Of a stretch of DNA of 64,000 bases, positions 4,121 to 55,096 are shown one piece after another. The number at the start of each line of letters is the position of its first letter. Positions within the stretch are counted from its first letter, which is position 1. This DNA is from an uncultured Candidatus Saccharibacteria bacterium (lineage in GTDB: Bacteria; Patescibacteriota; Minisyncoccia; Phycocordibacterales; Phycocordibacteraceae), in assembly GCA_964634305.1 (NCBI GenBank), contig CAZWLE010000001.1, positions 78,120 to 142,119 of the forward strand, given 5' to 3'. Below the pieces are notes generated by a model. The model saw only the letters and a list, made by a program, of their open reading frames with translations, searched no databases and was not told the origin of the DNA. The position numbers were made by a program, and so were the translations under genes.

Positions 4121-4699
4121 CTAGTCGGCTGCAGGAGCAAGGACGATGACCGACCCGCTCAAGTCATTCGGGTTGCGCTTATCGTCGATATGCACGAGCT
4201 CATCGTCTTCGAGAAGACGTTCGCCCTGAAGGAGCTTCACGCCACCAAGGTCGAGCAATGCGCCGAACGTAAGCTCACGATTGAGACCCACCACGGCAAG
4301 CGTTTGGTCGCCGCGCTTAAACGTGACCGTCGTGTTCGCGTAGGTGTAGAGGCGGATGCTGCTCGACTCTGACGTACCGGTGTTCCCGGTATCATCACTC
4401 ACGAGCGTCATGACGTAGAGGTTCCCCGCATCGCCATCGCCGCCCTTCTTCAGATAACGCGAAAGTGCCTTGTCGAAAAGAAGCGCGACCGTTTCGGACG
4501 TAATATTGTCCAACGTGACGTTCTTGAGCACAGCGGCCGCTTGTACGACCTCTGGGTTGTCGAGAATCATCGCGAGATTGAGGTTGTGGCTCGTCCCGCC
4601 GCCGTCTTTGTAGTCGTCGATTGCTTTCTGAATAACATCCATGACATCCGTGCTCTCAAGGAGAAAAGAAATGTCGTGGGTGTTGATGTGCATGGCCAT
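4121..4699 (-). CDS. Hypothetical protein (192 aa, MAMHINTHDISFLLESTDVMDV...)
   Basis: This is a minus-strand ORF. Its start is trimmed to an internal Met so it does not overlap the divergent + gene. The upstream part of the 270-aa track ORF would overlap the 4848 gene. No recognisable domain. Confidence 0.45.
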   Translation of the reverse strand: MAMHINTHDISFLLESTDVMDVIQKAIDDYKDGGGTSHNLNLAMILDNPEVVQAAAVLKNVTLDNITSETVALLFDKALSRYLKKGGDGDAGNLYVMTLVSDDTGNTGTSESSSIRLYTYANTTVTFKRGDQTLAVVGLNRELTFGALLDLGGVKLLQGERLLEDDELVHIDDKRNPNDLSGSVIVLAPAAD

Positions 4700-4794
4700 A
4701 AGTTCTATCTCCAATAACCTGCCCGCCCCGGTGGGGATGAACAGGTGTCTGGAGACGCGATTAACGACCGGTCTGAAAATTACATTTTTTTTAC

Positions 4795-16491: not shown

Positions 16492-17553
16492 ATGGCGAAG
16501 AACTACTACGACGTGCTTGGTGTCGACAAGAAGGCGACGCAGGACGACATCAAGAAGGCATTTCGCAAACTTGCCCAGAAGCACCATCCTGACAAAGGAG
16601 GTGATGAATCGGTATTCAAAGAAGTAACGGAAGCGTACGCCGTTCTTGGTGATGAGCGTAAGCGTCGAGAGTACGACTCATACGGTCAGTCATTCCCCGG
16701 CGGTGCAGGACCAGGAGGGTTTGATTTCTCAGGCTTTCAAAACGGTGCAGGTGGCGTCGAGTTTGACCTTTCTGATTTGTTCGGCGACCTCGGCGATATC
16801 TTCGGTGGCGCACGAGGGGGACGACGTGTACGCCGTGGTCGCGACATTTCTATCGATGTTGAAATCGCGTTTAAGGATTCCATCCTCGGCGTGAAGCGCT
16901 CGGTGCTCATTACTAAAATTGGTAAGTGCGATACGTGTGATGGGTCTGGCGCAAAGCCAGGTACTGAAACCATTACCTGCACCACCTGTAACGGTCAGGG
17001 AAAAATTCGTGAGACCCGAAACTCACCGCTTGGGTCGTTTACGTCAGTGCGTGCCTGTGCCGCGTGTGACGGCTCCGGAAAGGTACCAAAAGAAAAGTGT
17101 AAGAACTGTTCCGGTCATGGCATCCTCCGTAAGGAAGAAGAGGTAAAGCTTGATATCCCTGCTGGTATTGATAACGGGGAAATGATTCGTCTGCCAGGAC
17201 GCGGTGAAGCAGTGAAGGGAGGCGTAGCGGGCGACCTCTACGTAAAAGTACACGTAAAAGCACACCCAACCTTCCGCAAAGAAGGTGCCAATATCGTGAT
17301 GGAGCTTCCCGTGAAATTAACCGATGCACTCCTTGGCACCACGGTTTCTATAACGACTATTGATGACAAGGTGCTTGAAGTAAAAGTGCCGGCTATGGCA
17401 AAGACTGAAGAAACCTTGCGACTGCGTGGTAAGGGGGTAGCCTTTGGCGACGCTGCTGGTGACCTTCTGATACACGTCACCACCACACTTCCAAAGAAAC
17501 TTTCAGGAAAGGCGAAAAAGGCTATAGAAGCACTCAAAGAAGAAGGACTGTAG
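16492..17553 (+). CDS. dnaJ: Chaperone DnaJ (Hsp40)
   Basis: J-domain with HPD (KHHPDKGG), a G/F region, and four CxxCxGxG zinc-finger repeats. Confidence 0.95.
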   Translation: MAKNYYDVLGVDKKATQDDIKKAFRKLAQKHHPDKGGDESVFKEVTEAYAVLGDERKRREYDSYGQSFPGGAGPGGFDFSGFQNGAGGVEFDLSDLFGDLGDIFGGARGGRRVRRGRDISIDVEIAFKDSILGVKRSVLITKIGKCDTCDGSGAKPGTETITCTTCNGQGKIRETRNSPLGSFTSVRACAACDGSGKVPKEKCKNCSGHGILRKEEEVKLDIPAGIDNGEMIRLPGRGEAVKGGVAGDLYVKVHVKAHPTFRKEGANIVMELPVKLTDALLGTTVSITTIDDKVLEVKVPAMAKTEETLRLRGKGVAFGDAAGDLLIHVTTTLPKKLSGKAKKAIEALKEEGL

Positions 17554-18394: not shown

Positions 18395-18423
18395 TTCTCT
18401 AGCAGAGTACGCTGCTATACTAA

Positions 18424-22857: not shown

Positions 22858-23718
22858 GTGGGGATAGAATCCAGACATTTCGACTCAGGGGTTCCAGGCA
22901 AGCGTCTCCTGGTGTTCGGCGCCATACACGGTGATGAGGTCTGTGGGCCAGCCGGTATACGGCGCATCGTTGATGAGCTCACCTCTAGAACGCTTGTTCT
23001 GCGAAGTGGTTCAGTAACACTCGTGCCGGTTGCTAACCCAGATGCCTACGAGCGCGGAGAGCGACAAATCGAAGCCGATTTGAACCGTGTCTTCAAAAAG
23101 ACAGACAATCCAGACTCGTATGAGGCACGTCTGGCAAATGAGTTGATTCAGTTAGCTGACCAGAGTGATGTGTTACTCGATTTGCATTCAAGCTCTGCGC
23201 CAGGACCAGTGAATGCCTTTCTAGACTACCCGTCCGCAGACATGGAAGCCTTTATGCTGTCTCTCCAACCGGGAACTATTATCTATGACTGGCCAAAAGT
23301 CTACGAACAACGACCTGACCTCGCGTCCTTCACAACCGAACGGTATATGCATGACCGTGGTGCTTCAGCGACCACCTTTGAATGCGGGCAACATCAGGAC
23401 GCTACGGCGCCAGACGTTGCTTACACGACCATACGACGAGCCCTTGCACACCTTGGCATAACCAATGGTGATTCTCTTTCAAAGGAGGGCAGTAAAACGA
23501 GAAAAGTCTGGATGCGAGAGGTGGTCACCTTCGACCAGGAAGGCGATGCGTTCCTTGGCTCTTGGAAGCATCTGGAGCATATCCCTAAAGGAACAGCGAT
23601 AGCAAAACGTGCTGACGGTACTGTGATTGAAGCAGGAGAGGGCTGCGTGATTATCTTCCCGTACCCAAAAGCAGAACCGGGAGATGAGTGGTTCTATCTT
23701 GGCGAACTTGAGCGTTGA
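22858..23718 (+). CDS. Succinylglutamate desuccinylase/aspartoacylase (AstE/AspA) family zinc deacylase
   Basis: GAIHGDEVCG, a DLHSSS motif and the C-terminal beta domain match the family by my recall. Confidence 0.55.
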   Translation: MGIESRHFDSGVPGKRLLVFGAIHGDEVCGPAGIRRIVDELTSRTLVLRSGSVTLVPVANPDAYERGERQIEADLNRVFKKTDNPDSYEARLANELIQLADQSDVLLDLHSSSAPGPVNAFLDYPSADMEAFMLSLQPGTIIYDWPKVYEQRPDLASFTTERYMHDRGASATTFECGQHQDATAPDVAYTTIRRALAHLGITNGDSLSKEGSKTRKVWMREVVTFDQEGDAFLGSWKHLEHIPKGTAIAKRADGTVIEAGEGCVIIFPYPKAEPGDEWFYLGELER

Positions 23719-23743
23719 CACATACCTCTAGAAAGGTTAGATT
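23715..23743 (+). promoter_or_regulatory. Sigma70-like promoter (TTGACA-N17-TAGATT) for the T-box leader
   Basis: The -35 overlaps the stop codon of the upstream gene. Predicted TSS ~23750. Confidence 0.4.
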
Positions 23744-23749
23744 AATTTC

Positions 23750-24030
23750 AGAGCAGCGTTCATCACAACTGCAACATCCTTGATTCCGGTCCCACGAAAG
23801 TGGGATTGGGCCGGAATCGCCCGCAAGGGCAGGATGGCTTCTGCGTAAGTGGAAGCCCGGTCGCTCCCGTAACCATGAGCTAACCGATGTCGGCCGCAAG
23901 GTGTCTCGAGTCGGTGAGTCCTAAGGCGCAAGCCTTAGGAGAAAAGGGTGGTACCGCGAGGATTCTCCTAAAAAAATTCCCCGCCCCTGTATGCGTCTTT
24001 TGACGTGCACATGGGCGGGGAATTTTTGTT
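23750..24030 (+). promoter_or_regulatory. T-box riboswitch leader (tRNA-sensing transcription attenuator)
   Basis: The canonical T-box sequence A-AGGGTGGTACCGCG sits at 23945-23958. The antiterminator can form as AGGG[UGGUACC]GCGAGG...CCCCGC-CCCU. It competes with the terminator AATTCCCCGCCC...GGGCGGGGAATTTTTGTTT at 23975-24030. Upstream are multiple GNRA hairpins (stem I/II region). The specifier codon is not resolved. Confidence 0.7.
23975..24030 (+). terminator. Intrinsic terminator of the T-box expression platform
   Basis: A 12-bp GC-rich stem plus a T6 tract. It overlaps the artefactual track start of the downstream ORF. Confidence 0.65.
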
Positions 24031-24091
24031 TATGGGATTCCTCACTGTGGCAGTCGTTGTGAGTGCTGCGGTTCTTTCATGGAGAGTACGT

Positions 24092-24922
24092 ATGGTTAGC
24101 ACCTTAGCAACCTTCAAAAATCGCTTCGAGGTCAAGCCTCGTTTAGCGTGGCACCTAGGGGTGGAGCGGGAACGCTTCATCACTGACAAAAAGGGCCGAA
24201 TCGTACCGTCAGCAAAGGAAATTATCGACTACATCCGGAAACAGTATCTGGGGTCGGTTAACTTCCTGAGCGGCGACGTCGCGCCCGGTCTCGGAGAGCT
24301 CATCACCTATGAACTTTCTGCGTGCCAACTAGAGTCCCGGACGATACCAGACACCCTCAAGCATCTGAAAGGACAGCTGGAACGGTGGGACAAAGATATG
24401 GCGGCTGCCTTCGAACATCTTGGGTATGTACAATCGCACATCGAGGTCGCTCCGGAAGATATGCCGCTGGACGTCTATCCCGATCCAACCGGCCGCTATC
24501 AGAAGATAGTGTCAGCTATCTCGCGCACAGCACTTCTCGCTGCGTGCCGAGTAGCTGGGACTCATATCCACGTCGGTATGCCAGACCTAGAGACGGCGCT
24601 GAAGGTATATAACTACCTGACACGTCACGTCACCGAGCTCTGCGAGATGGGTAACGGCTCTTTCGGACAACGTCTGGAGATTTATCGCCAGATGGCCCCT
24701 GACTGGAAACCAATGCCATATGAATCCTGGCAGGACTACTACGACGTAGCCTGCCGCAAAGGGTTCGTCGATGATCCTCGTCAATGCTGGACACTTATCC
24801 GTATCAGCGTGCATGGAACCATTGAATTCCGCATGTTCGGCGCGACCGATTCTATCGACCGCATCGTTTCGTGGGCCGAGCGCTGTCACGCGCTTTGCTT
24901 GGAAGCAATGAATACTCGTTAG
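24092..24922 (+). CDS. Carboxylate-amine ligase, glutamate-cysteine ligase family 2 (GCS2/YbdK-like)
   Basis: The start is moved to Met30 (GGAGAG SD) because the track start lies in the terminator hairpin. Motifs ERERFITD and GTHIHVGMPD match the family. Confidence 0.55.
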   Translation: MVSTLATFKNRFEVKPRLAWHLGVERERFITDKKGRIVPSAKEIIDYIRKQYLGSVNFLSGDVAPGLGELITYELSACQLESRTIPDTLKHLKGQLERWDKDMAAAFEHLGYVQSHIEVAPEDMPLDVYPDPTGRYQKIVSAISRTALLAACRVAGTHIHVGMPDLETALKVYNYLTRHVTELCEMGNGSFGQRLEIYRQMAPDWKPMPYESWQDYYDVACRKGFVDDPRQCWTLIRISVHGTIEFRMFGATDSIDRIVSWAERCHALCLEAMNTR

Positions 24923-25014
24923 CAGGTCGTAACTATTACCTGAGGAGGATGCGTGCGGGGCTCATAACCCCCACGCATCTTTTCATAGCAAGATACACTA
25001 TCAGCAACTTTCTT

Positions 25015-25458
25015 ATGTCACTTTACTTCGCGTATGGCTCGAATATGGATGAGACGCAAATGCGTGAGCGTTGTCCTGAATCCACGCTTCTTGGCACCGC
25101 TACGCTGCATGCTCACCGTCTCGTATTCACTATCCCTTCTCGAAAATGGGGAGGGGGATGTGCAGATATTGTTCCTGACCAAAACGCAGAGATATATGGT
25201 GTGCTATACGAACTATCCGATGCAGATTTCGCAGCGCTCGACAAGAAGGAAGGGGTATTCACGAAGAGTTATCGACGAGTATCCGTAATGGTTGAGCGTG
25301 AGAGTGAGATGGTACGTGCGGATACCTACGAGGTGGTCTCGAAGACTGAAGGATTGGCTCCTTCTATGCCGTATATCTCTCAGATAGTGAGAGCTGCGGA
25401 ACGATTTTCGTTTCCAGATTCATACCTCGTCTACCTTCGCTCCTTCACATCGACGTAG
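25015..25458 (+). CDS. Gamma-glutamyl cyclotransferase (GGCT family)
   Basis: LYFAYGSNM... closely matches the GGCT N-terminal motif (FLYFAYGSNL). It is ~147 aa. An alternative start at 24949 is possible. Confidence 0.65.
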   Translation: MSLYFAYGSNMDETQMRERCPESTLLGTATLHAHRLVFTIPSRKWGGGCADIVPDQNAEIYGVLYELSDADFAALDKKEGVFTKSYRRVSVMVERESEMVRADTYEVVSKTEGLAPSMPYISQIVRAAERFSFPDSYLVYLRSFTST

Positions 25459-25473
25459 TGCTATACTCCCGCC

Positions 25474-26721
25474 ATGACCTTGGCTGAAGAACTGAAAGCG
25501 CGTGGATTCGCGGAGCATTCCTCCGCACCTCTTGAAACTATCCTTAAGGATAAACGCTACGCATATCACGGCATGGACCCGACCGCAGACTCCTTGCATG
25601 TTGGCCACCTCGTCCCACTTCTTCTTATGAAGCGGCTCTCAGACGCAGGTCATAAGACGGTGTTCTTGGTAGGAGGCGGCACCGGCATGATAGGGGACCC
25701 GCGCGACTCGGGTGAACGCTCACTTCTTGATAAGAAGACGCTCGAACACAACAAGAAGGCACTGCGTGCTCAGCTTCAAACCCTTATGGGAAAGAAGATT
25801 GAAATGGTTGATAACGCTGACTGGCTTTCAAAGCTCGGGATGCTTGAGTTCCTCCGTGACATTGGCAAGCACTTCACGGTAAACGACTTGGTAAAGCGTG
25901 ATCTCATTCGTCGCCGTCTTGAAACACCGGACGATTCCATCTCCTACACTGAATTCACCTATGCATTGCTTCAAGGCTTTGACTTCCTTGAGCTCTTTAA
26001 GAAGAAGGGTGTTGACCTTCAGGTAGGTGGTGCAGATCAGTGGACCAACATGCTTTCCGGCGTCGACCTGGTTCGCAAGAAGCTTGGTAAAGAGGTGTTC
26101 GTGTTCACGAATCCTCTCGTCACGGACGCGAACGGCAAGAAATTCGGAAAGTCCGAAGGCAACCCTATCTGGCTCGATGGTAAAAAGACGTCGTCGTTCA
26201 AGTTCTATCAGTTCTGGATGGCGCTCCCAGACCAGGGACTTGAGACCTACCTAAAGCTCTATACGTTCCTTCCGCTTGCAGATATTGAAACCCTCATGCA
26301 AAAGCACAATGCGGCCCCACAAGATCGCGAAGCACAGGAGACCCTGGCACGTCTCGTGACCGAAATCGTGCATGGTCCTGCGGCAACCGCTGCAGCGGCA
26401 GCTGCTACCGACGCATTGTTTGGTGGTCGTGCGCTATCGTCACTGTCTTCCATCGAACGTCAGTGCCTCATCGCTGAAGCACCGACTGCGCAGATTTCTA
26501 AGGGAGACGCAGAAAAGGGATACCCTATCGCTGATGCACTCGTTGCTGGCGGTATCGTGCCGTCTAAATCTGAAGCACGTCGCGTCATTGACGCAAAAGG
26601 GGTCACGATAAACGGAAAGCCGGTTGATAGTCTCGACCCAACCGTAAAGACCGCTGACTTTGACGGGGGACTCGCTATTGTTCGCAAAGGAAAGAATCCG
26701 CTCGTGCTCGTACTGAAATAG
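25474..26721 (+). CDS. tyrS: Tyrosyl-tRNA synthetase
   Basis: Class I aaRS with HIGH-type HVGH and KMSKS-type KFGKS, plus a C-terminal S4-like domain. It is 415 aa. Confidence 0.9.
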   Translation: MTLAEELKARGFAEHSSAPLETILKDKRYAYHGMDPTADSLHVGHLVPLLLMKRLSDAGHKTVFLVGGGTGMIGDPRDSGERSLLDKKTLEHNKKALRAQLQTLMGKKIEMVDNADWLSKLGMLEFLRDIGKHFTVNDLVKRDLIRRRLETPDDSISYTEFTYALLQGFDFLELFKKKGVDLQVGGADQWTNMLSGVDLVRKKLGKEVFVFTNPLVTDANGKKFGKSEGNPIWLDGKKTSSFKFYQFWMALPDQGLETYLKLYTFLPLADIETLMQKHNAAPQDREAQETLARLVTEIVHGPAATAAAAAATDALFGGRALSSLSSIERQCLIAEAPTAQISKGDAEKGYPIADALVAGGIVPSKSEARRVIDAKGVTINGKPVDSLDPTVKTADFDGGLAIVRKGKNPLVLVLK

Positions 26722-26723
26722 CT

Positions 26724-27299
26724 ATGCCAACCGAGTGGGAGGGCGTCTTCTGGCCGATTGATAAAGATGCGGTTCGTAAAGCTCTCTCGGACGCTGGTGC
26801 CGAACTGGTGTTTCCAGAGCGCCTCATGCGCCGGGTGAATCTCTATCTTCCTGAAAGCGTCACGACGCAAGGCTTTGCTCGTGTACGGGACGAAGGCCAT
26901 CGCACCACCCTTTCTGTTAAAGATACAAGCGGTACCCGTATTGAAGACAAGAAGGAAGTACAGGTCGTCGTTGATGACTTTGATAGTGCACAAGACCTTC
27001 TTCGCGCGCTTGGCTGTAAGGACAAAAACTATCAGGAATCGACGCGTGAGCTATGGACCCTCGACGGAGCAGAGATAACCATAGACGAGTGGCCATTCCT
27101 TGAGCCACTCTGTGAAGTTGAGGCAGATTCCGAAGCATCCGTACGGGCCGTTGCTGAAAAGCTCGGGTTTGATTGGAGTACGGCTCGATTTTGTTCTGCG
27201 GATAAGCTCTACGCAGAGAAATACAATGTCCATCACACGGCCATTACGCAGGGTATCCCGCGCCTTACGTTCGATATACCGGACCCGTTCAAAAAATAA
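26724..27299 (+). CDS. Hypothetical protein, possibly CYTH-domain (CyaB/thiamine-triphosphatase-like)
   Basis: Size ~190 aa and an N-terminal EWEGVFW resembling the CYTH EIERKFL motif. The call is weak. Confidence 0.3.
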   Translation: MPTEWEGVFWPIDKDAVRKALSDAGAELVFPERLMRRVNLYLPESVTTQGFARVRDEGHRTTLSVKDTSGTRIEDKKEVQVVVDDFDSAQDLLRALGCKDKNYQESTRELWTLDGAEITIDEWPFLEPLCEVEADSEASVRAVAEKLGFDWSTARFCSADKLYAEKYNVHHTAITQGIPRLTFDIPDPFKK

Positions 27300-27325
27300 C
27301 GAAATCTGCTATACTCCTGCCGTGC

Positions 27326-27410
27326 GCGTCGGTACTCAAGTGGTCAACGAGGGTTGGCTGTAAACCAACTGGCTTTGCCTACGTAGGTTCGAATCCTACC
27401 CGGCGCACCA
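27326..27410 (+). tRNA. tRNA-Tyr (anticodon GTA), long variable arm, encoded CCA
   Basis: Folded by hand. Acceptor GCGTCGG/CCGGCGC (one G.U), D-arm, anticodon stem GTTGG/CCAAC with loop CTGTAAA, a 13-nt variable arm, T-arm GTAGG-TTCGAAT-CCTAC, and discriminator A + CCA. Confidence 0.85.
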
Positions 27411-27419
27411 ACGAAAAAT

Positions 27420-27449
27420 CCGGAGGAAGCCCTCCGGTTTTTTCTTTTG
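27420..27449 (+). terminator. Rho-independent terminator ending the T-box/tyrS/tRNA-Tyr operon (CCGGAGG-AAGC-CCTCCGG-TTTTTT)
   Basis: A perfect 7-bp GC stem plus a T6 tract. Confidence 0.75.
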
Positions 27450-27470
27450 TGTGTTATAGTCCCGCTACCT

Positions 27471-29516
27471 ATGGCACCGAAGCGCCTCGTGGCCTTCCTC
27501 TTTCTCGTTGCGTTCTGCGCGGAACCTATCACTGTCCTTGCACAGGAAGCAGTAGATTCAGTCACCACAGAACCAGCTATAGAGGAAGAGACGCCGTATG
27601 CCCCTGAGCTTCCGAGCGAGATACTCGCTACCTCAACCGAAGCGATTGCTGTAGAGGAGTCAGTAGTTGTTGAAACTGTCACGGTCGAAGAACCAGTAAC
27701 TGAGGTTCCGGTTATTGAAGGAGAGTACATTCCTGGTGAAGTGGTTGTGCAGTACGAAGACGACGTAACACCAACGGTCATTCAAACTGACGAGGGTGTT
27801 GCTGAAACAATTGCTGAGCTCTCGACCGACCCCACGATTGCGTTTGTAGAACCAAACTACGTCCGTTCTATGGATGTGCTTAGCTCAACCACGGACCCTC
27901 TCGCAGAACTCCTATGGGGACTTGAGATTACTCGCGCATCAGATGTATGGTCACGCACCACTGGCGAGGAGGTCATCATTGCGATTATTGATACGGGCGT
28001 TGACTACACGCATCCCGACCTTGCTGCCAATATGTGGAGCGATGCGAACTGTGTCGACGAGACAGGCGCAGCAATTGTGGGTGGCTGCACCAATGGATGG
28101 GACTTCGTGGATAACGATAACAACCCGATGCCCGTAAATACCGGAGGGAGCTGGTACCACGGCACTCATGTGGCTGGTACTGCTGGTGCGGTATACAACA
28201 ACGATATAGGTGTTATCGGTATGGCACCAAATGTCAAAATCATGGCGCTTCGCTTTGGTCTTGATACGGCTTCTGAAGCGAGAGCGATTGATTTTGCTCG
28301 CCGCAACGGCGCGAAGATTATCAATGCAAGCTTTAGTGGAAGTGGCACCTCAAACATTGAGCGCGAAGCTATTGAGCGCTTTGAAGCAGCGGGTGGTCTG
28401 TTTGTTGCTGCTGCAGCGAACAAATCAAACGATGCAGATGTAATTCCTGCATATCCGGCGGCATACAATCTGCCAAGCGTCATAAGTGTCGCGGCAAGCA
28501 CCGATACCGATGCCTTGGCCTCGTTTTCTAATTACGGAGCAACCTCGGTCGACCTCGCCGCTCCAGGCGTCGATATCGTAAGCACTTTTCCACTGGCGGC
28601 AGCTGAGGATTACGGCATTCTCGATGGCACCTCCATGGCAACGCCGCACGTTGCCGGTGCTGCTGCACTTCTCTGGGCGTTTAAGCCAGCACTCTCAGCA
28701 AGTGCTGTTAAGTCACTCATCCTTGATTCAGGTGACGCAGTACCAAGCCTTTCTGGAAAGACCGTATCAGGGAAGCGTCTCAACGTATTTACCGCTATCA
28801 CGAACGCCGATGAACAGCCTGTCATTACGATTACCGGTGATAACCCAACGTCACTTACGGTAGGGCAAACCTACACCGAGCTTGGCGCGACCGCATCCGA
28901 CGATGAGGATGGTGACCTCACCTCTCTTATTCAGGTTTCTGGTGCCGTAGACACCAACACGGTAGGAAATTACTCAATTACCTACACTGTTGAAGACTCT
29001 GCGGGACACGAAACGATTGCTACACGCAGCGTTGTGGTGAATGCCGTTATTTCGTCTGGTGGCGGAGGAGGAGGCGGGGGCGGTGGTGGAGGTGGCGGCT
29101 CAAAGAAGAGCAAGACCACTAAAAAGAAAGAGACAAAACAAGACAATAAAGCTGAAGAACCGCTGCCACGTGAGACACAATCGGAAGTGCGAGGTAACTC
29201 TCGTGCACCGCTTTTCTTCGTAAACCTTACCGAAGGCTCAACGGGTACTGAAGCAAAAGAATTGCAAAAGGCACTTACTAAACTCGGCTTCTACACCGGC
29301 CCTATCACTGGCTTTATGGGTCCCATGACTAAGGACGCGCTGATGCGTTATCAAACGGCACGCGGTATTCCTGCAACAGGTATAAACGATGCGGCAACGC
29401 GCGAGAAGCTCAACGCAGAGTACGAGCAGAGCGAAGCAGACCGTATGAGTTACTTACTCTCCCTTCTTTCAGAACTGCAGGCACTTCTCGCGGCAATGCG
29501 GGCACAGAGTATATAA
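27471..29516 (+). CDS. Secreted subtilisin-like serine protease (S8) with poly-Gly linker and C-terminal peptidoglycan-binding domain
   Basis: A signal peptide. Catalytic triad motifs are IDTGVD (Asp), HGTHVAGT (His) and GTSMATPHVAG (Ser). A G16 linker precedes a PG_binding_1-like LQKALTKLGFYTGPITGFMGPMTKDALMRYQ. The start is moved to Met9, after the terminator. Confidence 0.9.
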   Translation: MAPKRLVAFLFLVAFCAEPITVLAQEAVDSVTTEPAIEEETPYAPELPSEILATSTEAIAVEESVVVETVTVEEPVTEVPVIEGEYIPGEVVVQYEDDVTPTVIQTDEGVAETIAELSTDPTIAFVEPNYVRSMDVLSSTTDPLAELLWGLEITRASDVWSRTTGEEVIIAIIDTGVDYTHPDLAANMWSDANCVDETGAAIVGGCTNGWDFVDNDNNPMPVNTGGSWYHGTHVAGTAGAVYNNDIGVIGMAPNVKIMALRFGLDTASEARAIDFARRNGAKIINASFSGSGTSNIEREAIERFEAAGGLFVAAAANKSNDADVIPAYPAAYNLPSVISVAASTDTDALASFSNYGATSVDLAAPGVDIVSTFPLAAAEDYGILDGTSMATPHVAGAAALLWAFKPALSASAVKSLILDSGDAVPSLSGKTVSGKRLNVFTAITNADEQPVITITGDNPTSLTVGQTYTELGATASDDEDGDLTSLIQVSGAVDTNTVGNYSITYTVEDSAGHETIATRSVVVNAVISSGGGGGGGGGGGGGGSKKSKTTKKKETKQDNKAEEPLPRETQSEVRGNSRAPLFFVNLTEGSTGTEAKELQKALTKLGFYTGPITGFMGPMTKDALMRYQTARGIPATGINDAATREKLNAEYEQSEADRMSYLLSLLSELQALLAAMRAQSI

Positions 29517-29682: not shown

Positions 29683-29805
29683 GATTCGCCCCTGTGCTTT
29701 GCCGCCAGCCTGCGGCAGGTATATACAGTATAATACACAAAAAGGTATAAAGTCAAGTTCTGGGGACAACGGCACCATACACAAGCATCTGCTATGCTTA
29801 CGCGC

Positions 29806-30747
29806 ATGACGGCAAAGAAAACGATGCTCACAGGCCTCCAGCCCTCGGGCGACCTCCATATTGGCAACTATTTCGGTGCACTCGCGCCGTACAAAGCAGA
29901 GTACGAGAACTACGAGAGTTGGCTCATGGTAGCTGACTACCATTCACTCACATCACTTCGCGACGCAGCGGGTCTTCGTACCAACACCCTTAACGTCGTT
30001 CGTGATTATCTTGCCGCAGGATTTGACCCTGAGAAGATAACTATCTTTAAGCAATCAGACGTTCCTGCACACACGGAACTCGCATGGATTTTCGATTGTC
30101 TCGTGACCGTGCCGTTCCTTGAGCTTGGACACGCGTATAAAGACAAGGTAGCGAAGGGTCTTGAAGCAAACGCCGGTCTCTTTACGTACCCTATGCTTAT
30201 GGCCGCTGACATTCTCCTCTATGACACCGATGTGGTTCCGGTAGGTGAGGACCAGCGTCAGCATCTTGAATACGCACGCGAAGCCGCTGCGAAGTTTAAT
30301 AATGCGTACGGCGAAACATTCAAAGAGCCCAAAGAACTCATCCTTAAAGCAGTAGGAGTGGTTCCGGGTACGGATGGCAAGAAGATGAGTAAGAGCTATG
30401 GCAACACCGTGCCGCTCTTTGGCACCCGCGATGAGCTCTCCAAAGCAGTCATGAGCATCGTTACCGACTCCTCAGGTGAGCGTCCTGAGAATGTGTATGC
30501 AATTCACGCGCTCGTTAAAAACGAAGCTGAGCTTGCTGCGCTCTACGAGGAGAAGAAGGGGAAGTACAAGGACCTCAAGGAAGCCCTTATCGAAGACCTC
30601 GATGCGTACCTTGCCCCAATGCGTGAGAAGCGTGATGCACTTTCGGATGATGACGTACGGAAGGTATTGGCTGGCGGCGCAGAGAAGGCGCGGGCAAAGA
30701 GTGAAGCAAAAATGGAAGCCGTGCGAAAGGCAGTCGGGGTTCGGTAG
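29806..30747 (+). CDS. trpS: Tryptophanyl-tRNA synthetase
   Basis: Class I aaRS motifs GNYFGAL (HIGH-like) and KMSKS (KMSKSYGN). ~313 aa. Confidence 0.9.
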   Translation: MTAKKTMLTGLQPSGDLHIGNYFGALAPYKAEYENYESWLMVADYHSLTSLRDAAGLRTNTLNVVRDYLAAGFDPEKITIFKQSDVPAHTELAWIFDCLVTVPFLELGHAYKDKVAKGLEANAGLFTYPMLMAADILLYDTDVVPVGEDQRQHLEYAREAAAKFNNAYGETFKEPKELILKAVGVVPGTDGKKMSKSYGNTVPLFGTRDELSKAVMSIVTDSSGERPENVYAIHALVKNEAELAALYEEKKGKYKDLKEALIEDLDAYLAPMREKRDALSDDDVRKVLAGGAEKARAKSEAKMEAVRKAVGVR

Positions 30748-31086: not shown

Positions 31087-32409
31087 ATGGCACGGGTACT
31101 TATAGGCGAGCTCAGCTCGCATGCGGGCGAAGATGTCTCTATCTCGGGATGGGTCGAGGTTCGTCGCGACCAGGGCAAAATGGTCTTCTTTGATTTCCGC
31201 GACCGCTCAGGCGTCGTGCAGGGTGTTGTGCTTCCAGGGAGTGCAGCAATGGATACCGCCAAGGAGTGCCGCCAGGAGTATGTCGTGCGTGTAGACGGTA
31301 CCGTTAATAAGCGTCCTGAGAAGAACGTTGTTGCTGGCAAGGTAAACGGCGATATTGAGCTCGAAGTAAAAGGCATTGAAATACTTTCCGCGGCACAAGA
31401 GCTTCCGTTTGAAAAAGATACCGACCTTAACATCGACACTCGGTTTGATTTCCGTCCGTACACTATTCGCTCAGAACGCGACCGTGATGTCTTCTCAGTA
31501 CAAGCAACCATCCTTGAGGAGTACCGCGCATCCCTTGCTCGTCAGGGCTTCACGGAATTTACCGCTCCCGCATTGGTAGGCGGCGACGCAGAGGGTGGTG
31601 CAGCTGTTTTCAAGGTTGAGTACTACAACGACAAGACGGCGTACCTTGCCACCTCACCGCAGCTCTATAAGCAGATTATGGTGGGAGCGTTTGAACGCGT
31701 ATTCACGATTGCAAAGATTTTCCGCGCCGAGAAGAGCGCTACAACCCGTCACCTCTCAGAGCTCACCCAGATGGACTTTGAAATGGGCTTTATTGAAGAC
31801 GAGCGCGACGTCATGGCTGTGCTTGAAACGACGATTCGCGACACAGTGAATGCTGTTGTTGCAAAGCATCCTGACGTCTTTGCACGTCTTGGCGCAGACG
31901 TACCGCTCCTTGGTGAGCGCTTCCCTGTACTTACTCTCGAAGAGGCACATAAAACCCTTGGTGTTGCTCCTGAAGACGACATGACTCCAGAGCATGAGCG
32001 CGCTATCTGCGAATGGGCCGCAAAGGAACACGGTTGTGACTTTGTGTTCATTACTCGCTTCCCAACAGACGCACGTGCCTTCTACACCATGAGCGCAGAA
32101 GGACCGCTCTCCAAAGGCTTTGATCTTCTCTTCCGAGGTCTTGAGATAAACTCCGGCGCACAACGTATTCACAATTACGACGACATGGTCGCTCGTATTG
32201 CCGAACGCGGTATGGACCCTAAGAAGTTCGCGTTTTACCTTCAAGCCTTTAAGTACGGTATGCCACCACACGGTGGCTGCTCAACCGGTCTTGAGCGGTT
32301 CACGATGAAGATGCTTGGTCTTGGCAACGTTAAGGAAGCATCGGCATTCCCTCGTGATATGAACCGTATCGATATCCTACTTTCGGAGACTGATAAGCCA
32401 GTCGATTAA
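31087..32409 (+). CDS. aspS: Aspartyl-tRNA synthetase, short archaeal/non-discriminating type (440 aa)
   Basis: An N-terminal OB anticodon-binding domain followed by a class II core (FRAE, GGCSTGLER). It lacks the bacterial GAD insertion. Confidence 0.9.
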   Translation: MARVLIGELSSHAGEDVSISGWVEVRRDQGKMVFFDFRDRSGVVQGVVLPGSAAMDTAKECRQEYVVRVDGTVNKRPEKNVVAGKVNGDIELEVKGIEILSAAQELPFEKDTDLNIDTRFDFRPYTIRSERDRDVFSVQATILEEYRASLARQGFTEFTAPALVGGDAEGGAAVFKVEYYNDKTAYLATSPQLYKQIMVGAFERVFTIAKIFRAEKSATTRHLSELTQMDFEMGFIEDERDVMAVLETTIRDTVNAVVAKHPDVFARLGADVPLLGERFPVLTLEEAHKTLGVAPEDDMTPEHERAICEWAAKEHGCDFVFITRFPTDARAFYTMSAEGPLSKGFDLLFRGLEINSGAQRIHNYDDMVARIAERGMDPKKFAFYLQAFKYGMPPHGGCSTGLERFTMKMLGLGNVKEASAFPRDMNRIDILLSETDKPVD

Positions 32410-53779: not shown

Positions 53780-55096
53780 ATGTCCGTCGTTACCCGTATC
53801 CCGCCCTCGCCAACCGGCCGTTTCCATATTGGAACAGCGCGTACGGCACTCTTCAACTATCTATACGCCCGTAAAATGGGTGGAAAGTTCTTGTTCCGTA
53901 TTGAGGATACCGATAAGGAGCGCAGCACCAAGGAGCATGAACAGAACATCATCGACGGTCTTGCATGGCTTGGTCTTGAGCATGACGGTGAGATAGTGCG
54001 TCAGTCGGAGCGTGCAGAGCGCCACGCCGAGCTGCTTCGTAAACTCGTTGCTGAAGACAAGGCATACATATCAAAAGAGGCGAGTGCAAAGGTGGAAGGA
54101 GCAGAAGTAGAAGTGGTACGTCTTCGTAACATCGGTCGTTCTATAACCTTTAATGATGAAATTCGTGGCAACATTACGTTTGATACGACTGAACTCTCAG
54201 ATTTTGTTATTGGTCGCTCTATAGACGACCCGCTGTATCACTTTGCCGTTGTCGTCGATGACGCTGACATGGGTGTTACCCATGTCATTCGTGGGGAAGA
54301 CCATATTTCAAACACGCCACGCCAAATTCTTATTCAGGAAGCGCTTGGTCTCTCACGTCCTACCTACGCGCATCTTCCCCTTATTCTTGCGCCTGATCGC
54401 TCAAAGATGAGTAAGCGTCATGGCGCCGTTGCGCTCTCTGAATACAAAGAGCAAGGCTTTGTACCAGAAGGCATCATTAACTATCTCGCGCTCTTAGGCT
54501 GGGGACCGGGTGACGATAGAGAGGATTTCTCACTTTCTGAGCTCGTTGAAGCATTTGATTTATCGAATGTACACAAATCAGGCGCTGTATTCGACATGGT
54601 GAAGTTCAAGTCGGTTAATCATCGTTGGCTTCGCAAACTCTCTGATGAGGAGTATCTCTCACTCGGCGGCTTTGCAACCGATGAGACCACGCTCAAGGCA
54701 GTCCCTCTTATGAAGGACCGTGCGACGACCTTTGGTGAGGCACGAACCATGCTCGAAACGGAACTTGGATTCCTATTTGCAGCCCCAACGCCTGACCCTA
54801 CTATCCTCAAGGCTAAAGAGGGTCCACTGGGGGCAAAAGAGGCTCTGGAGGCCGTTCTTGGAGCTATAGAAGGCCTTCCGGAGGGCGTTTCTGCTGAGAA
54901 AGTGAAGGAAGTTCTCATGCCGCTTGCCGATGCTGAGGAGGCAAAAGGGAAGGGGGGACGAGGTGCAGTGCTTTGGCCTACTCGCTACGCTCTTTCAGGT
55001 CAGGAGCGGTCACCAGACCCCTTCACACTCGTCTCCATTCTCGGTGTCACTGAGAGCGCATCGCGTCTCAAAACCGCCCTTGCTATACTTTCCTAA
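53780..55096 (+). CDS. gltX: Glutamyl-tRNA synthetase (GluRS/GlxRS)
   Basis: PSPTGRFHIGTARTALFNY is the HIGH region and SKMSKRHG is the KMSKS region. 438 aa. Confidence 0.85.
   Translation: MSVVTRIPPSPTGRFHIGTARTALFNYLYARKMGGKFLFRIEDTDKERSTKEHEQNIIDGLAWLGLEHDGEIVRQSERAERHAELLRKLVAEDKAYISKEASAKVEGAEVEVVRLRNIGRSITFNDEIRGNITFDTTELSDFVIGRSIDDPLYHFAVVVDDADMGVTHVIRGEDHISNTPRQILIQEALGLSRPTYAHLPLILAPDRSKMSKRHGAVALSEYKEQGFVPEGIINYLALLGWGPGDDREDFSLSELVEAFDLSNVHKSGAVFDMVKFKSVNHRWLRKLSDEEYLSLGGFATDETTLKAVPLMKDRATTFGEARTMLETELGFLFAAPTPDPTILKAKEGPLGAKEALEAVLGAIEGLPEGVSAEKVKEVLMPLADAEEAKGKGGRGAVLWPTRYALSGQERSPDPFTLVSILGVTESASRLKTALAILS

Follow-up and report, generated by a model that had tools for sequence, protein, structure and literature searches.

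Which amino acid does a T-box leader report on when the gene behind it encodes neither an aminoacyl-tRNA synthetase (aaRS) nor a biosynthetic enzyme or transporter? The question is raised by a 64,000-nucleotide stretch of DNA from an uncultured Candidatus Saccharibacteria bacterium (assembly GCA_964634305.1, contig CAZWLE010000001.1, forward-strand positions 78,120 to 142,119; hereafter the window, numbered from its first letter). Here, a leader RNA with a T-box sequence precedes the gene for a 276-residue ligase of the glutamine synthetase/glutamate-cysteine ligase (GS/GCL) fold. An earlier note on this DNA had taken the leader for a sensor of tRNA-Tyr that governs a five-gene operon, consisting of the ligase gene, a gamma-glutamyl cyclotransferase (GGCT) gene, tyrS, a CYTH gene and tRNA-Tyr. 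Our analysis of the window and of orthologous loci leads to a different reading, to which we assign a probability of about 85%: a tryptophan-sensing, transcription-attenuating T-box that controls the single ligase gene.

A divergent T-box leader upstream of the ligase gene

The leader is about 290 nt long (23744-24032), and between 23715 and 24091 the elements follow one another in the order promoter, leader, T-box sequence, antiterminator and terminator (Table 1). The promoter, which was recognised by its match to the consensus, overlaps the stop codon of an AstE-like gene upstream, and the transcription start of the leader was placed provisionally from this match. Compared with shuffled sequence, the leader folds with a z score of -6.9, and the minimum-free-energy fold of its whole length contains the terminator. 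At 23945-23958 stands the T-box sequence AGGGTGGTACCGCG (AGGGUGGUACCGCG as RNA), which the earlier note had recognised together with an antiterminator that carries a 7-nt UGGUACC bulge; both were confirmed. The 3' strand of the antiterminator, CGCCCCT (23982-23988), is embedded in the 5' arm (23975-23986) of a terminator hairpin that spans 23975-24024 and is followed by TTTTTGTTT, so that the two structures are mutually exclusive.

Stem I measures about 60 nt. It has a basal ATCC/GGAT helix and is topped by a 5-bp hairpin with a GAAA loop; a distal T-loop platform for contact with the tRNA elbow (an AG bulge plus a distal loop) was not found in it. Where a K-turn would be expected, the UGA on the 5' strand is conserved, and UGAG stands on the 3' strand of those leaders that lack the extra hairpin; in the window, this lineage-specific hairpin occupies that place. 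The region of Stem IIA and the IIB pseudoknot holds a conserved, F-box-like CCGUAA sequence. To judge from the sequence, all core features of a T-box are present, except for the Rfam score and the distal Stem I platform, which is optional in classes with a short Stem I (PMC7583486).

At its gathering threshold, the Rfam T-box model RF00230 had no match in the window, where the scan found tRNAs only. The same holds for 16 related loci, none of which reached the gathering score and in which only tRNAs were matched. In a permissive search, the model aligned end to end over the leader, matching the 3' half well and covering 48 nt of Stem I where it expects 87. The earlier note had proposed to give up the T-box if no RF00230 match exceeded the threshold. 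Taken literally, the search came out that way, but this test is too strict given the comparative evidence.

To obtain this evidence, a leader profile was built from 32 aligned leaders (alignment A1) and applied to 71 genome loci and 80 independent metagenome loci. The same leader lies directly upstream of the orthologous ligase gene at 45 of the 71 genome loci and 60 of the 80 metagenome loci, that is, at 105 loci, all in Patescibacteria. RNAalifold predicted 53 pairs from the 32 leaders, 44 of them with compensatory changes, and the terminator pairs covary. When the T-box structure was drawn by hand onto the alignment, 84% of the cells were paired as against 69.5% in shuffles, and 43 of 53 pairs changed on both sides. 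Its covariation score of 0.44 fell to 0.10-0.16 after the 3' partners had been slid by one to three columns. The MAFFT columns of Stem III and the antiterminator were misaligned owing to variable lengths and are uninformative, and the antiterminator was checked sequence by sequence instead: its two helices, A1 and A2, form 7/7 pairs in 30 of the 32 leaders, and A1 covaries (AGGG/CCCU versus AAGG/CCUU). Because of these orthologous, covarying leaders we regard the element, despite its low Rfam score, as a real T-box riboswitch that diverges from RF00230, and consider this practically certain. Literature that pairs T-boxes with the candidate phyla radiation, Patescibacteria, Parcubacteria or Saccharibacteria was not found in a search of incomplete coverage, and a prior description elsewhere is possible.

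Four other T-box-like motifs in the window were rejected as chance matches. Those at 17334, 47516 and 56362 read as coding, and the one at 28152 lies inside the open reading frame (ORF) of an S8 peptidase.

Specifier, antiterminator bulge and gene neighbourhood point to tRNA-Trp

In T-boxes, the specifier and the purine that follows it have their canonical place on the 3' side of Stem I (PMC7583486). At this place the leader has UGG followed by G, in a side bulge that is conserved as R-Y-U-G-G-G. The UGGG is invariant in 32/32 aligned leaders and in 69/69 distinct full-length leaders. The base before it varies (U in 58, C in 8, G in 2 and A in 1 of the 69), so that one and the same amino acid is specified in the UGG frame alone and the NUG frame is ruled out. 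We infer that UGG is the specifier.

A related locus, L071, offers what appears to be a positive control for this geometry. Among the other T-box motif matches in the related loci, only the one at L071 position 7190 is a real second T-box. It belongs to a leader that also has a short Stem I, precedes an AspRS gene (L071:7000-7270) and likewise stays below the Rfam gathering score. Its ultrashort Stem I has the apical loop CUGACA, in which the specifier GAC and the following A are placed directly 5' of the helix 3' strand (UUGAUCCAG-CUGACA-CUGGUGAGG), its UGGC bulge fits a tRNA-Asp with G73, and its Stem II carries the canonical GAA/AGUA motif.

The antiterminator bulge agrees with tRNA-Trp as well. 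At its discriminator-pairing position, 49 of the 69 leaders have C and 20 have U, and none has A or G. Among 40 tRNA genes found in 80 genome loci, 15 are tRNA-Trp(CCA), often in the order ligase, AstE-like gene, tRNA-Trp on one strand. All 15 of these neighbouring tRNA-Trp genes have G73, which pairs with a bulge C and wobbles with a U as in the window. As every one of these tRNAs has G73, the bulge base shows no covariation with the tRNA-Trp discriminator, and the agreement is one of compatibility only. A TrpRS gene, moreover, is found in the flanks of 29 of the 71 genome loci. The window has its own trpS 4.9 kb downstream, with no T-box motif upstream of it. The ligand of the leader is thus very probably tRNA-Trp and not tRNA-Tyr, as far as specifier, bulge and synteny can tell.

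Orthologous loci without a T-box carry tryptophan-codon leader peptides

At eight orthologous loci that lack the T-box, representing seven distinct leader peptides, the ligase gene is preceded by a short leader ORF with a cluster of tryptophan codons (WW, WWxW or WxW), and then by a GC-rich hairpin with a U-run (Table 1). The clusters read FWWTW, AWW, WWLW, SWW, WWGW and WHW. These ORFs look like ribosome-mediated tryptophan attenuators in Patescibacteria. At L035 and L044, a GUAGGGC at or just past the leader stop codon can pair with GCCCUAC of the terminator 5' arm, a predicted pairing that follows classical attenuator logic. Together, the T-box and the leader peptides tie the ligase gene to the charging of tRNA-Trp by at least two unrelated devices.

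A further leader peptide is conserved in operons that run from an M20 peptidase gene, in some cases through a GNAT gene, to the ligase gene. It reads M-K/R-x-T-A-I-Q-x-N-N-W-H-H-N/D-H ... E-G-G-x-W and is encoded about 200 nt 5' of the M20 gene (L032, L010, L076, L037 at 4520-4700, L006, L012, L045, L048, L074, L142 and L143). The sequence that encodes it (CGAAGGGGG) and the 5' arm of a terminator further downstream (CACCCUUCG) are complementary. The conservation at the level of the peptide suggests an arrest or attenuation peptide with tryptophan and histidine codons.

Two other groups of loci show related features. At loci with M20 immediately ahead of the ligase gene (L006, L012 and L037), the M20 ORF ends in His-Trp-stop (CAT TGG TAR), followed by two conserved hairpins, and the terminal tryptophan codon might act as a sensor. 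The leader ORFs of the ligase genes at L066 (5846-5926) and L067 (5841-5906) are rich in phenylalanine, contain a single tryptophan (NNWFSFFF and NFFFW) and have terminators behind them, which may make them attenuators that respond to aromatic amino acids.

The T-box unit probably ends behind the ligase gene

The gene calls of the earlier note (GCS2-like, GGCT-type, tyrS after a 15-nt gap, CYTH and tRNA-Tyr) hold, as does its observation that a GCS2-like ligase is an unusual first target for a T-box. Its view that the hairpin at 27420 is the only clear terminator has to be revised, since a strong hairpin with a U-run also lies directly behind the ligase gene, at 24944-24986. An equivalent GC-rich hairpin, usually with a U-run, follows the ligase gene in 9/9 loci of the GGCT type and in nearly all of 21 loci of the AstE type, whatever gene comes next. 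The hairpin probably marks the 3' end of the T-box-controlled unit. We consider it likely that this unit consists of the ligase gene alone, and GGCT probably stands outside it.

The genes around the ligase gene vary from locus to locus. Its most frequent conserved neighbour is the AstE-like gene (38-44 of about 70-80 loci), mostly directly downstream; in the window this gene lies upstream. GGCT follows the ligase gene in 8/80 genome loci and 20/80 metagenome loci, including the closest relatives of the window. TrpRS genes are neighbours at 27-29 loci and M20 peptidase genes at 9-10 loci, while tyrS is found near the ligase gene in 6/80 loci and CYTH in 1/80.

Further downstream, tyrS and tRNA-Tyr appear to have promoters of their own. 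The extended -10 motif TGCTATACT ahead of tyrS recurs in the region 27307-27324, 2 nt before the 5' end of tRNA-Tyr. The window contains four such sites (18413-18421, 25459-25467, 27307-27315 and 55081-55089), where 0.34 would be expected. At three of them (tyrS, tRNA-Tyr and 55081), [AG]TG follows exactly 7 nt past the -10 hexamer, against an expectation of 0.04. To judge by this spacing, the sites may be promoters from which tyrS and other genes are transcribed without a leader, and the site at 25459 is probably the promoter of a leaderless tyrS mRNA.

Between the T-box terminator and the ligase gene lies one more conserved element, GTTCTTT. At 34 of 66 orthologous loci, with or without a T-box, the pattern GTTC(T/A)TT stands 5-40 nt 5' of the Shine-Dalgarno sequence of the ligase gene and no more than 100 nt ahead of its start, against a background of 0.09 per 100 nt. 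As UUCUUU is complementary to AAAGGA, the motif may be an anti-Shine-Dalgarno element or a protein-binding site. Its distance from the Shine-Dalgarno sequence is often too short for a hairpin.

Three side observations concern the surroundings of the ligase gene. The window has three aaRS genes within 7 kb, as trpS and an AspRS/AsnRS-type gene (31087-32409) lie a few kb past tyrS. The S8 subtilase gene between them (27447-29516) encodes Ig-like and peptidoglycan-binding domains and contains a run of 14 glycines (~29000-29045) encoded by a GGN repeat. In other genomes, a fusion of a type II chorismate mutase and a SAM-dependent methyltransferase recurs beside trpS and the ligase gene at 13-14 loci (for example L046:1355-2503, L025:4233-5348 and L008:3464-4480), a striking find in organisms thought to be without aromatic amino-acid biosynthesis.

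Alternative ligands and a longer transcript

The tyrosine-sensing operon of the earlier note, in which GCS2, GGCT, tyrS, CYTH and tRNA-Tyr are co-regulated as one unit, has in its favour that both tyrS and tRNA-Tyr come later on the same strand, separated by short gaps only, that the window bulge UGGU could pair with A73 of tRNA-Tyr, and that the close relatives L014 and L019 also have tyrS within a few kb. However, the leader contains neither UAC nor UAU upstream from its T-box sequence (the earlier note had itself seen no UAC specifier), and the UGGC bulge of 49 of the 69 related leaders cannot pair with the A73 of the window tRNA-Tyr. The rarity of tyrS and CYTH beside the ligase gene, the conserved hairpin behind that gene and the promoter-like motifs at tyrS and tRNA-Tyr argue against the operon itself. 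A specifier unrelated to the downstream aaRS, combined with an internal terminator or promoter before tyrS, was the outcome that the earlier note had named as fatal to its operon, and this is what the locus appears to present. We therefore hold tyrosine sensing to be very improbable. Cysteine is no better a candidate. The trinucleotide UGC, which the earlier note had placed at 23851-23853 and which in fact lies at 23842-23844 in the loop of Stem II, is nearly invariant, unpaired and followed by a purine, and as a specifier it would match a target from the glutamate-cysteine ligase superfamily. Yet it reads GGC in L021, and the Rfam alignment puts its hairpin at the position of the Stem II S-turn, where the aspS T-box of L071 has the canonical GAA/AGUA. 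Bacterial tRNA-Cys has U73 and would need an A in the bulge, a base never seen there in the 69 leaders; the neighbours are tRNA-Trp and trpS and not cysteine genes, and the leader peptides of the orthologues that lack a T-box are built on tryptophan codons and not on cysteine codons. The slimmest chance falls to leucine, with a specifier shifted one base upstream of UGG and the next G as the 3' purine. In 66 of 69 leaders UGG is preceded by U or C, so that a leucine codon, UUG or CUG, can be read, and in the RNAalifold structure the final G of UGGG is paired to an invariant U. Three leaders, though, would then read GUG or AUG, and bacterial tRNA-Leu has A73, at odds with the bulge C of 49/69 leaders. 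Leucine-related synteny is absent, whereas tRNA-Trp, trpS and leader peptides with tryptophan codons are present.

A longer transcript is a more serious contender, although we still consider it unlikely. Here, the T-box would sense tryptophan, and the hairpin at 24944-24986 would terminate only in part, so that read-through raises the expression of GGCT, and possibly of tyrS, under tryptophan starvation. The short U-run (UUUUCAU), the position of GGCT behind the ligase gene in other genome and metagenome loci (8 and 20, respectively) and the lack of a strong promoter between 24986 and 25015 are consistent with this. Against it, the hairpin is kept in nearly all loci while the gene behind it differs by lineage, being AstE-like, GGCT or, in L053, directly the tRNA-Trp gene, and tyrS has a promoter motif of the leaderless type. 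On balance, the evidence favours a tryptophan-sensing T-box with a unit of one gene.

The ligase family and its recurrent partners

The ligase is recognised only faintly by existing profiles. It scored 18.1 bits with Pfam GCS2 (PF04107; cut-off 21) and 44.8 bits with the YbdK family TIGR02050 (cut-off 176.4; E 1e-12), and a sequence search against PDB chains gave nothing significant; only the fold search matched. The AlphaFold2 model (pLDDT 89.4) had E. coli YbdK as its top PDB match in Foldseek (1R8G; E 1.8e-9, TM 0.73, 18% identity), followed by plant glutamate-cysteine ligase and glutamine synthetases. Residues E25, E27, E74, E81, H158, H160, E245 and R247 are invariant and form E-x-E, H-x-H and E-x-R motifs. 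By analogy they would be the catalytic residues that bind metal and ATP. The family also has several conserved cysteine and tryptophan residues. Fold and conserved motifs indicate an ATP-dependent carboxylate-amine ligase, and the regulation of its gene points to tryptophan rather than cysteine.

Orthologues with 40-60% identity occur in Patescibacteria, including Kaiserbacteria, Paceibacteria, Moranbacteria, Saccharibacteria-labelled bins and others. An exhaustive profile search (E<=1e-30) among 1.84 billion representatives returned 160 clusters at 50% identity, nearly all of 245-300 residues. By sequence, the ligase thus appears to form a compact clade, mainly of Patescibacteria. Of the Acidobacterial and Solirubrobacterales homologues, the Acidobacterial one at L073 (26% identical) was inspected and set aside as uninformative, as it is an ordinary YbdK of 379 residues in a different gene context. 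Neither a T-box upstream of a GS/GCL-fold ligase nor anything relevant on this ligase family was found in the literature searched.

The recurrent partners of the ligase, AstE/AspA-type and M20 deacylases and the GGACT-type cyclotransferase, cleave X-CO-NH-amino-acid or gamma-glutamyl bonds. This suggests a conjugate-forming and conjugate-cleaving pair of enzymes that acts on tryptophan or a close relative. Such a cycle might serve to trap scarce tryptophan, to release it by a reverse reaction of the Dop type or to detoxify an inhibitor of TrpRS, all of which is speculation. That the ligase acts directly on the tryptophan supply seems to us somewhere between doubtful and an even chance. In addition, the ligase of some members begins with a fused GNAT domain (P0058, P0079, P0094, P0099, P0105 and P0117), or GNAT is encoded directly upstream (L010, L015, L032, L045 and L048), often behind an M20 gene. 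GNAT, ligase and M20 form a trio of acyltransferase, ligase and deacylase.

Table 1. Features of the ligase locus in the window and leader peptides at orthologous loci without a T-box. Percentages give alignment cells paired; fractions give pairs that change on both sides.
Feature	Position	Strand	Description
AstE/AspA-type zinc amidohydrolase gene	22858-23718	+	PF24827, 2e-22; upstream, outside the T-box unit
Sigma-70-like leader promoter	23715-23743	+	TTGACA, 17 nt spacer, TAGATT; 10/12 consensus matches; consensus match only
Truncated Stem I	23776-23835	+	lower helix 97.7%, 6/6; upper hairpin 100%, 4/5; extra hairpin 91.5%
UGA of GA-type (K-turn-like) motif in Stem I	23781-23783		
Stem I lower helix	23784-23789 / 23811-23816		6 bp
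Stem I short capping hairpin	23791-23804		
Putative specifier UGG (23807-23809) and 3' purine G23810	23807-23810	+	3' side bulge of Stem I, immediately 5' of lower-helix 3' strand
Stem I lineage-specific extra hairpin	23819-23830		
Stem II hairpin	23836-23857	+	loop UGCGUAAGUG; 96.4%, 6/6 (covarying); at Stem II S-turn position in RF00230 alignment
Stem IIA and IIB pseudoknot	23858-23880	+	IIA CGG/CCG, invariant, no pair changes on both sides; IIB GCUC 23863-23866 with GAGC 23877-23880, 96.8%, 4/4
Additional linker helix	23883-23915	+	ACCGA/UCGGU around small hairpin; 89.4%, 5/5 (covarying)
Stem III hairpin	23919-23940	+	purines on both flanks (GAG 5', GAAAA 3'); length and sequence vary among loci
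T-box sequence and antiterminator	23945-23988	+	A1 AGGG/CCCU, 7-nt bulge UGGUACC (23949-23955), A2 GCG/CGC
Intrinsic terminator competing with antiterminator	23975-24032	+	arms AAUUCCCCGCCC... / ...GGGCGGGGAAUU, then UUUUUGUUU
GTTCTTT motif	24071-24077	+	just 5' of Shine-Dalgarno GGAGAG (24081-24086)
Regulated gene, 276-aa GS/GCL-fold ligase	24092-24922	+	ATG 24092 behind GGAGAG
Terminator-like hairpin after ligase gene	24944-24986	+	GGAGGAUGCGUGCGGGG-CUCAUAA-CCCCCACGCAUCUUUUCAU, UUUUCAU; -25.8 kcal/mol, z -4.6
AIG2/GGACT-type gamma-glutamyl(amine) cyclotransferase gene (GGCT)	25015-25458	+	neighbour in closest relatives
TGCTATACT extended -10 motif	25459-25476	+	7 nt before tyrS ATG
tyrS	25474-26721		15-nt gap after GGCT
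CYTH	26724-27299		
tRNA-Tyr(GTA)	27326-27410		
Terminator	27420-27437		
trpS (TrpRS)	29794-30747	+	recurrent ligase neighbour in other genomes
L035 leader peptide	L035:5782-5890		MKSIPRNNFWWTWQNL
L044 leader peptide	L044:5777-5890		MVIVVKKLAWWAYRNPLQS
L112 leader peptide	L112:426-620		...KLAWWLWENS...
L113 leader peptide	L113:983-1150		MSWWRALQS...
L129, L132 leader peptide	L129:2792-2910		MNTKIQVTHSWWGWQ
L136 leader peptide	L136:655-790		...VSAWWAQIE...
L147 leader peptide	L147:2800-2960		...AVWHWAH...

Discussion

The following mechanism would account for these observations. The UGG specifier would pair with the CCA anticodon of tRNA-Trp, and 5'-UGGU-3' of the bulge with the 3' end of the tRNA, GCCA, through a U-G wobble here and a C-G pair in most relatives. 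Uncharged tRNA-Trp would thus stabilise the antiterminator, allowing RNA polymerase to pass the terminator at 23975-24032 into the ligase gene. Transcription would end after this one gene, at the hairpin behind it, and GGCT, tyrS, CYTH and tRNA-Tyr would be separately transcribed neighbours. The ligase would then be an enzyme induced by tryptophan starvation, most likely for the acquisition or salvage of tryptophan together with the adjacent amide-cleaving enzymes (AstE-like, M20 or GGCT).

Several points weigh against this interpretation. Even the permissive RF00230 search gave the leader only 27.8 bits (E 2.5e-4 on 551 nt), where the gathering score is 93. The tRNA-Trp gene of the host lies outside the 64 kb, and its G73 is extrapolated from related genomes; taken alone, the window bulge UGGU would equally fit a tRNA with A73 such as tRNA-Tyr. 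The hairpin at 24944-24986 is followed by only four consecutive U residues, which may let some transcripts continue into GGCT and tyrS. As a response to amino-acid starvation, a ligase that spends ATP would be unusual, and with no tryptophan-yielding reaction evident its physiological role is a guess. More generally, the mechanism was put together from sequence elements, covariation, synteny and fold, from which we deduce that the leader binds a tRNA, where transcription stops, how far the unit reaches and what the enzyme is for.

The transcriptional T-boxes of Firmicutes (RF00230), such as the tyrS leader of B. subtilis and the trp leader of L. lactis, share with the present leader the T-box sequence, a 7-nt bulge for pairing with NCCA, an antiterminator and a terminator that exclude each other, Stems II and III with the IIA/B pseudoknot between them, and a specifier with its purine on the 3' side of Stem I. 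Here, however, Stem I has about 60 nt and lacks the distal platform of interdigitated T-loops, two helices are added, one a hairpin at the Stem I base and the other in the linker, and the loop of Stem II has UGCR...AGUG in place of GAA...AGUA. The host is a member of the Patescibacteria, and the target is a ligase gene rather than a gene for an aaRS, for biosynthesis or for a transporter. Tryptophan-specific T-boxes are known for trp operons, trpS, anti-TRAP and tryptophan transporters (PMC2494555, PMC9382623).

A short Stem I without elbow contact, followed by Stem II and the IIA/B pseudoknot, is also found in the actinobacterial ileS T-boxes, which have a short or ultrashort Stem I and belong to the translational class (Sherwood et al. 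2015; review, PMC7583486). Those RNAs act by masking the Shine-Dalgarno sequence, whereas the present leader has a classical intrinsic terminator. Their specifier, AUC for isoleucine, stands in an apical loop. In the window, UGG lies in a side bulge under a small capping hairpin, and in L021 and the aspS T-box of L071 this place is taken by an apical loop.

Attenuators of the E. coli trpL type resemble the T-box-less orthologous loci, not the window, in having a leader ORF with tryptophan codons and a hairpin with a U-run, and in L035 and L044 also a competing antiterminator pairing; the gene that they would control is the ligase gene and not one for tryptophan biosynthesis. The protein shares its GS/GCL fold and its E-x-E, H-x-H and E-x-R motifs with YbdK/GCS2 ligases and EgtA, and the catalytic role of these motifs is taken from family knowledge. 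It is about 100 residues shorter than YbdK and forms a small clade of its own, set apart by tryptophan-linked regulation and synteny.

What might such an enzyme do in these cells? According to the prevailing view, Patescibacteria do not synthesise tryptophan themselves. We put forward, tentatively and at odds somewhat short of even, that the ligase is their main effector of tryptophan starvation and catalyses an undescribed ATP-dependent step of capture or salvage, with control having evolved at least twice, as a hitherto unrecognised class of short-Stem-I T-boxes and as attenuators based on tryptophan leader peptides. This step may form a gamma-glutamyl- or N-acyl-tryptophan conjugate that is later cleaved by the AstE-like, M20 or GGCT enzyme. 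It may also be a reverse reaction, similar to that of Dop, which frees tryptophan from conjugates.

T-boxes of this kind are abundant in Patescibacteria, yet none of the 17 tested, comprising that of the window and those of the 16 related loci, reaches the Rfam gathering score, and Rfam-based surveys are expected to miss this class. Regulatory RNA may therefore be under-counted in roughly a quarter of bacterial diversity. The leader also joins a short Stem I to a transcription terminator, and a short Stem I has so far been described mainly for translational ileS leaders. A T-box specifier is a rare clue to gene function that can be read from sequence alone. In this case it labels an orphan enzyme family as tryptophan-linked, in agreement with the tryptophan-codon leader peptides and with the synteny of trpS and tRNA-Trp. 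It thereby offers a testable entry point into how ultra-small, host-dependent bacteria meet a shortage of the scarcest amino acid.

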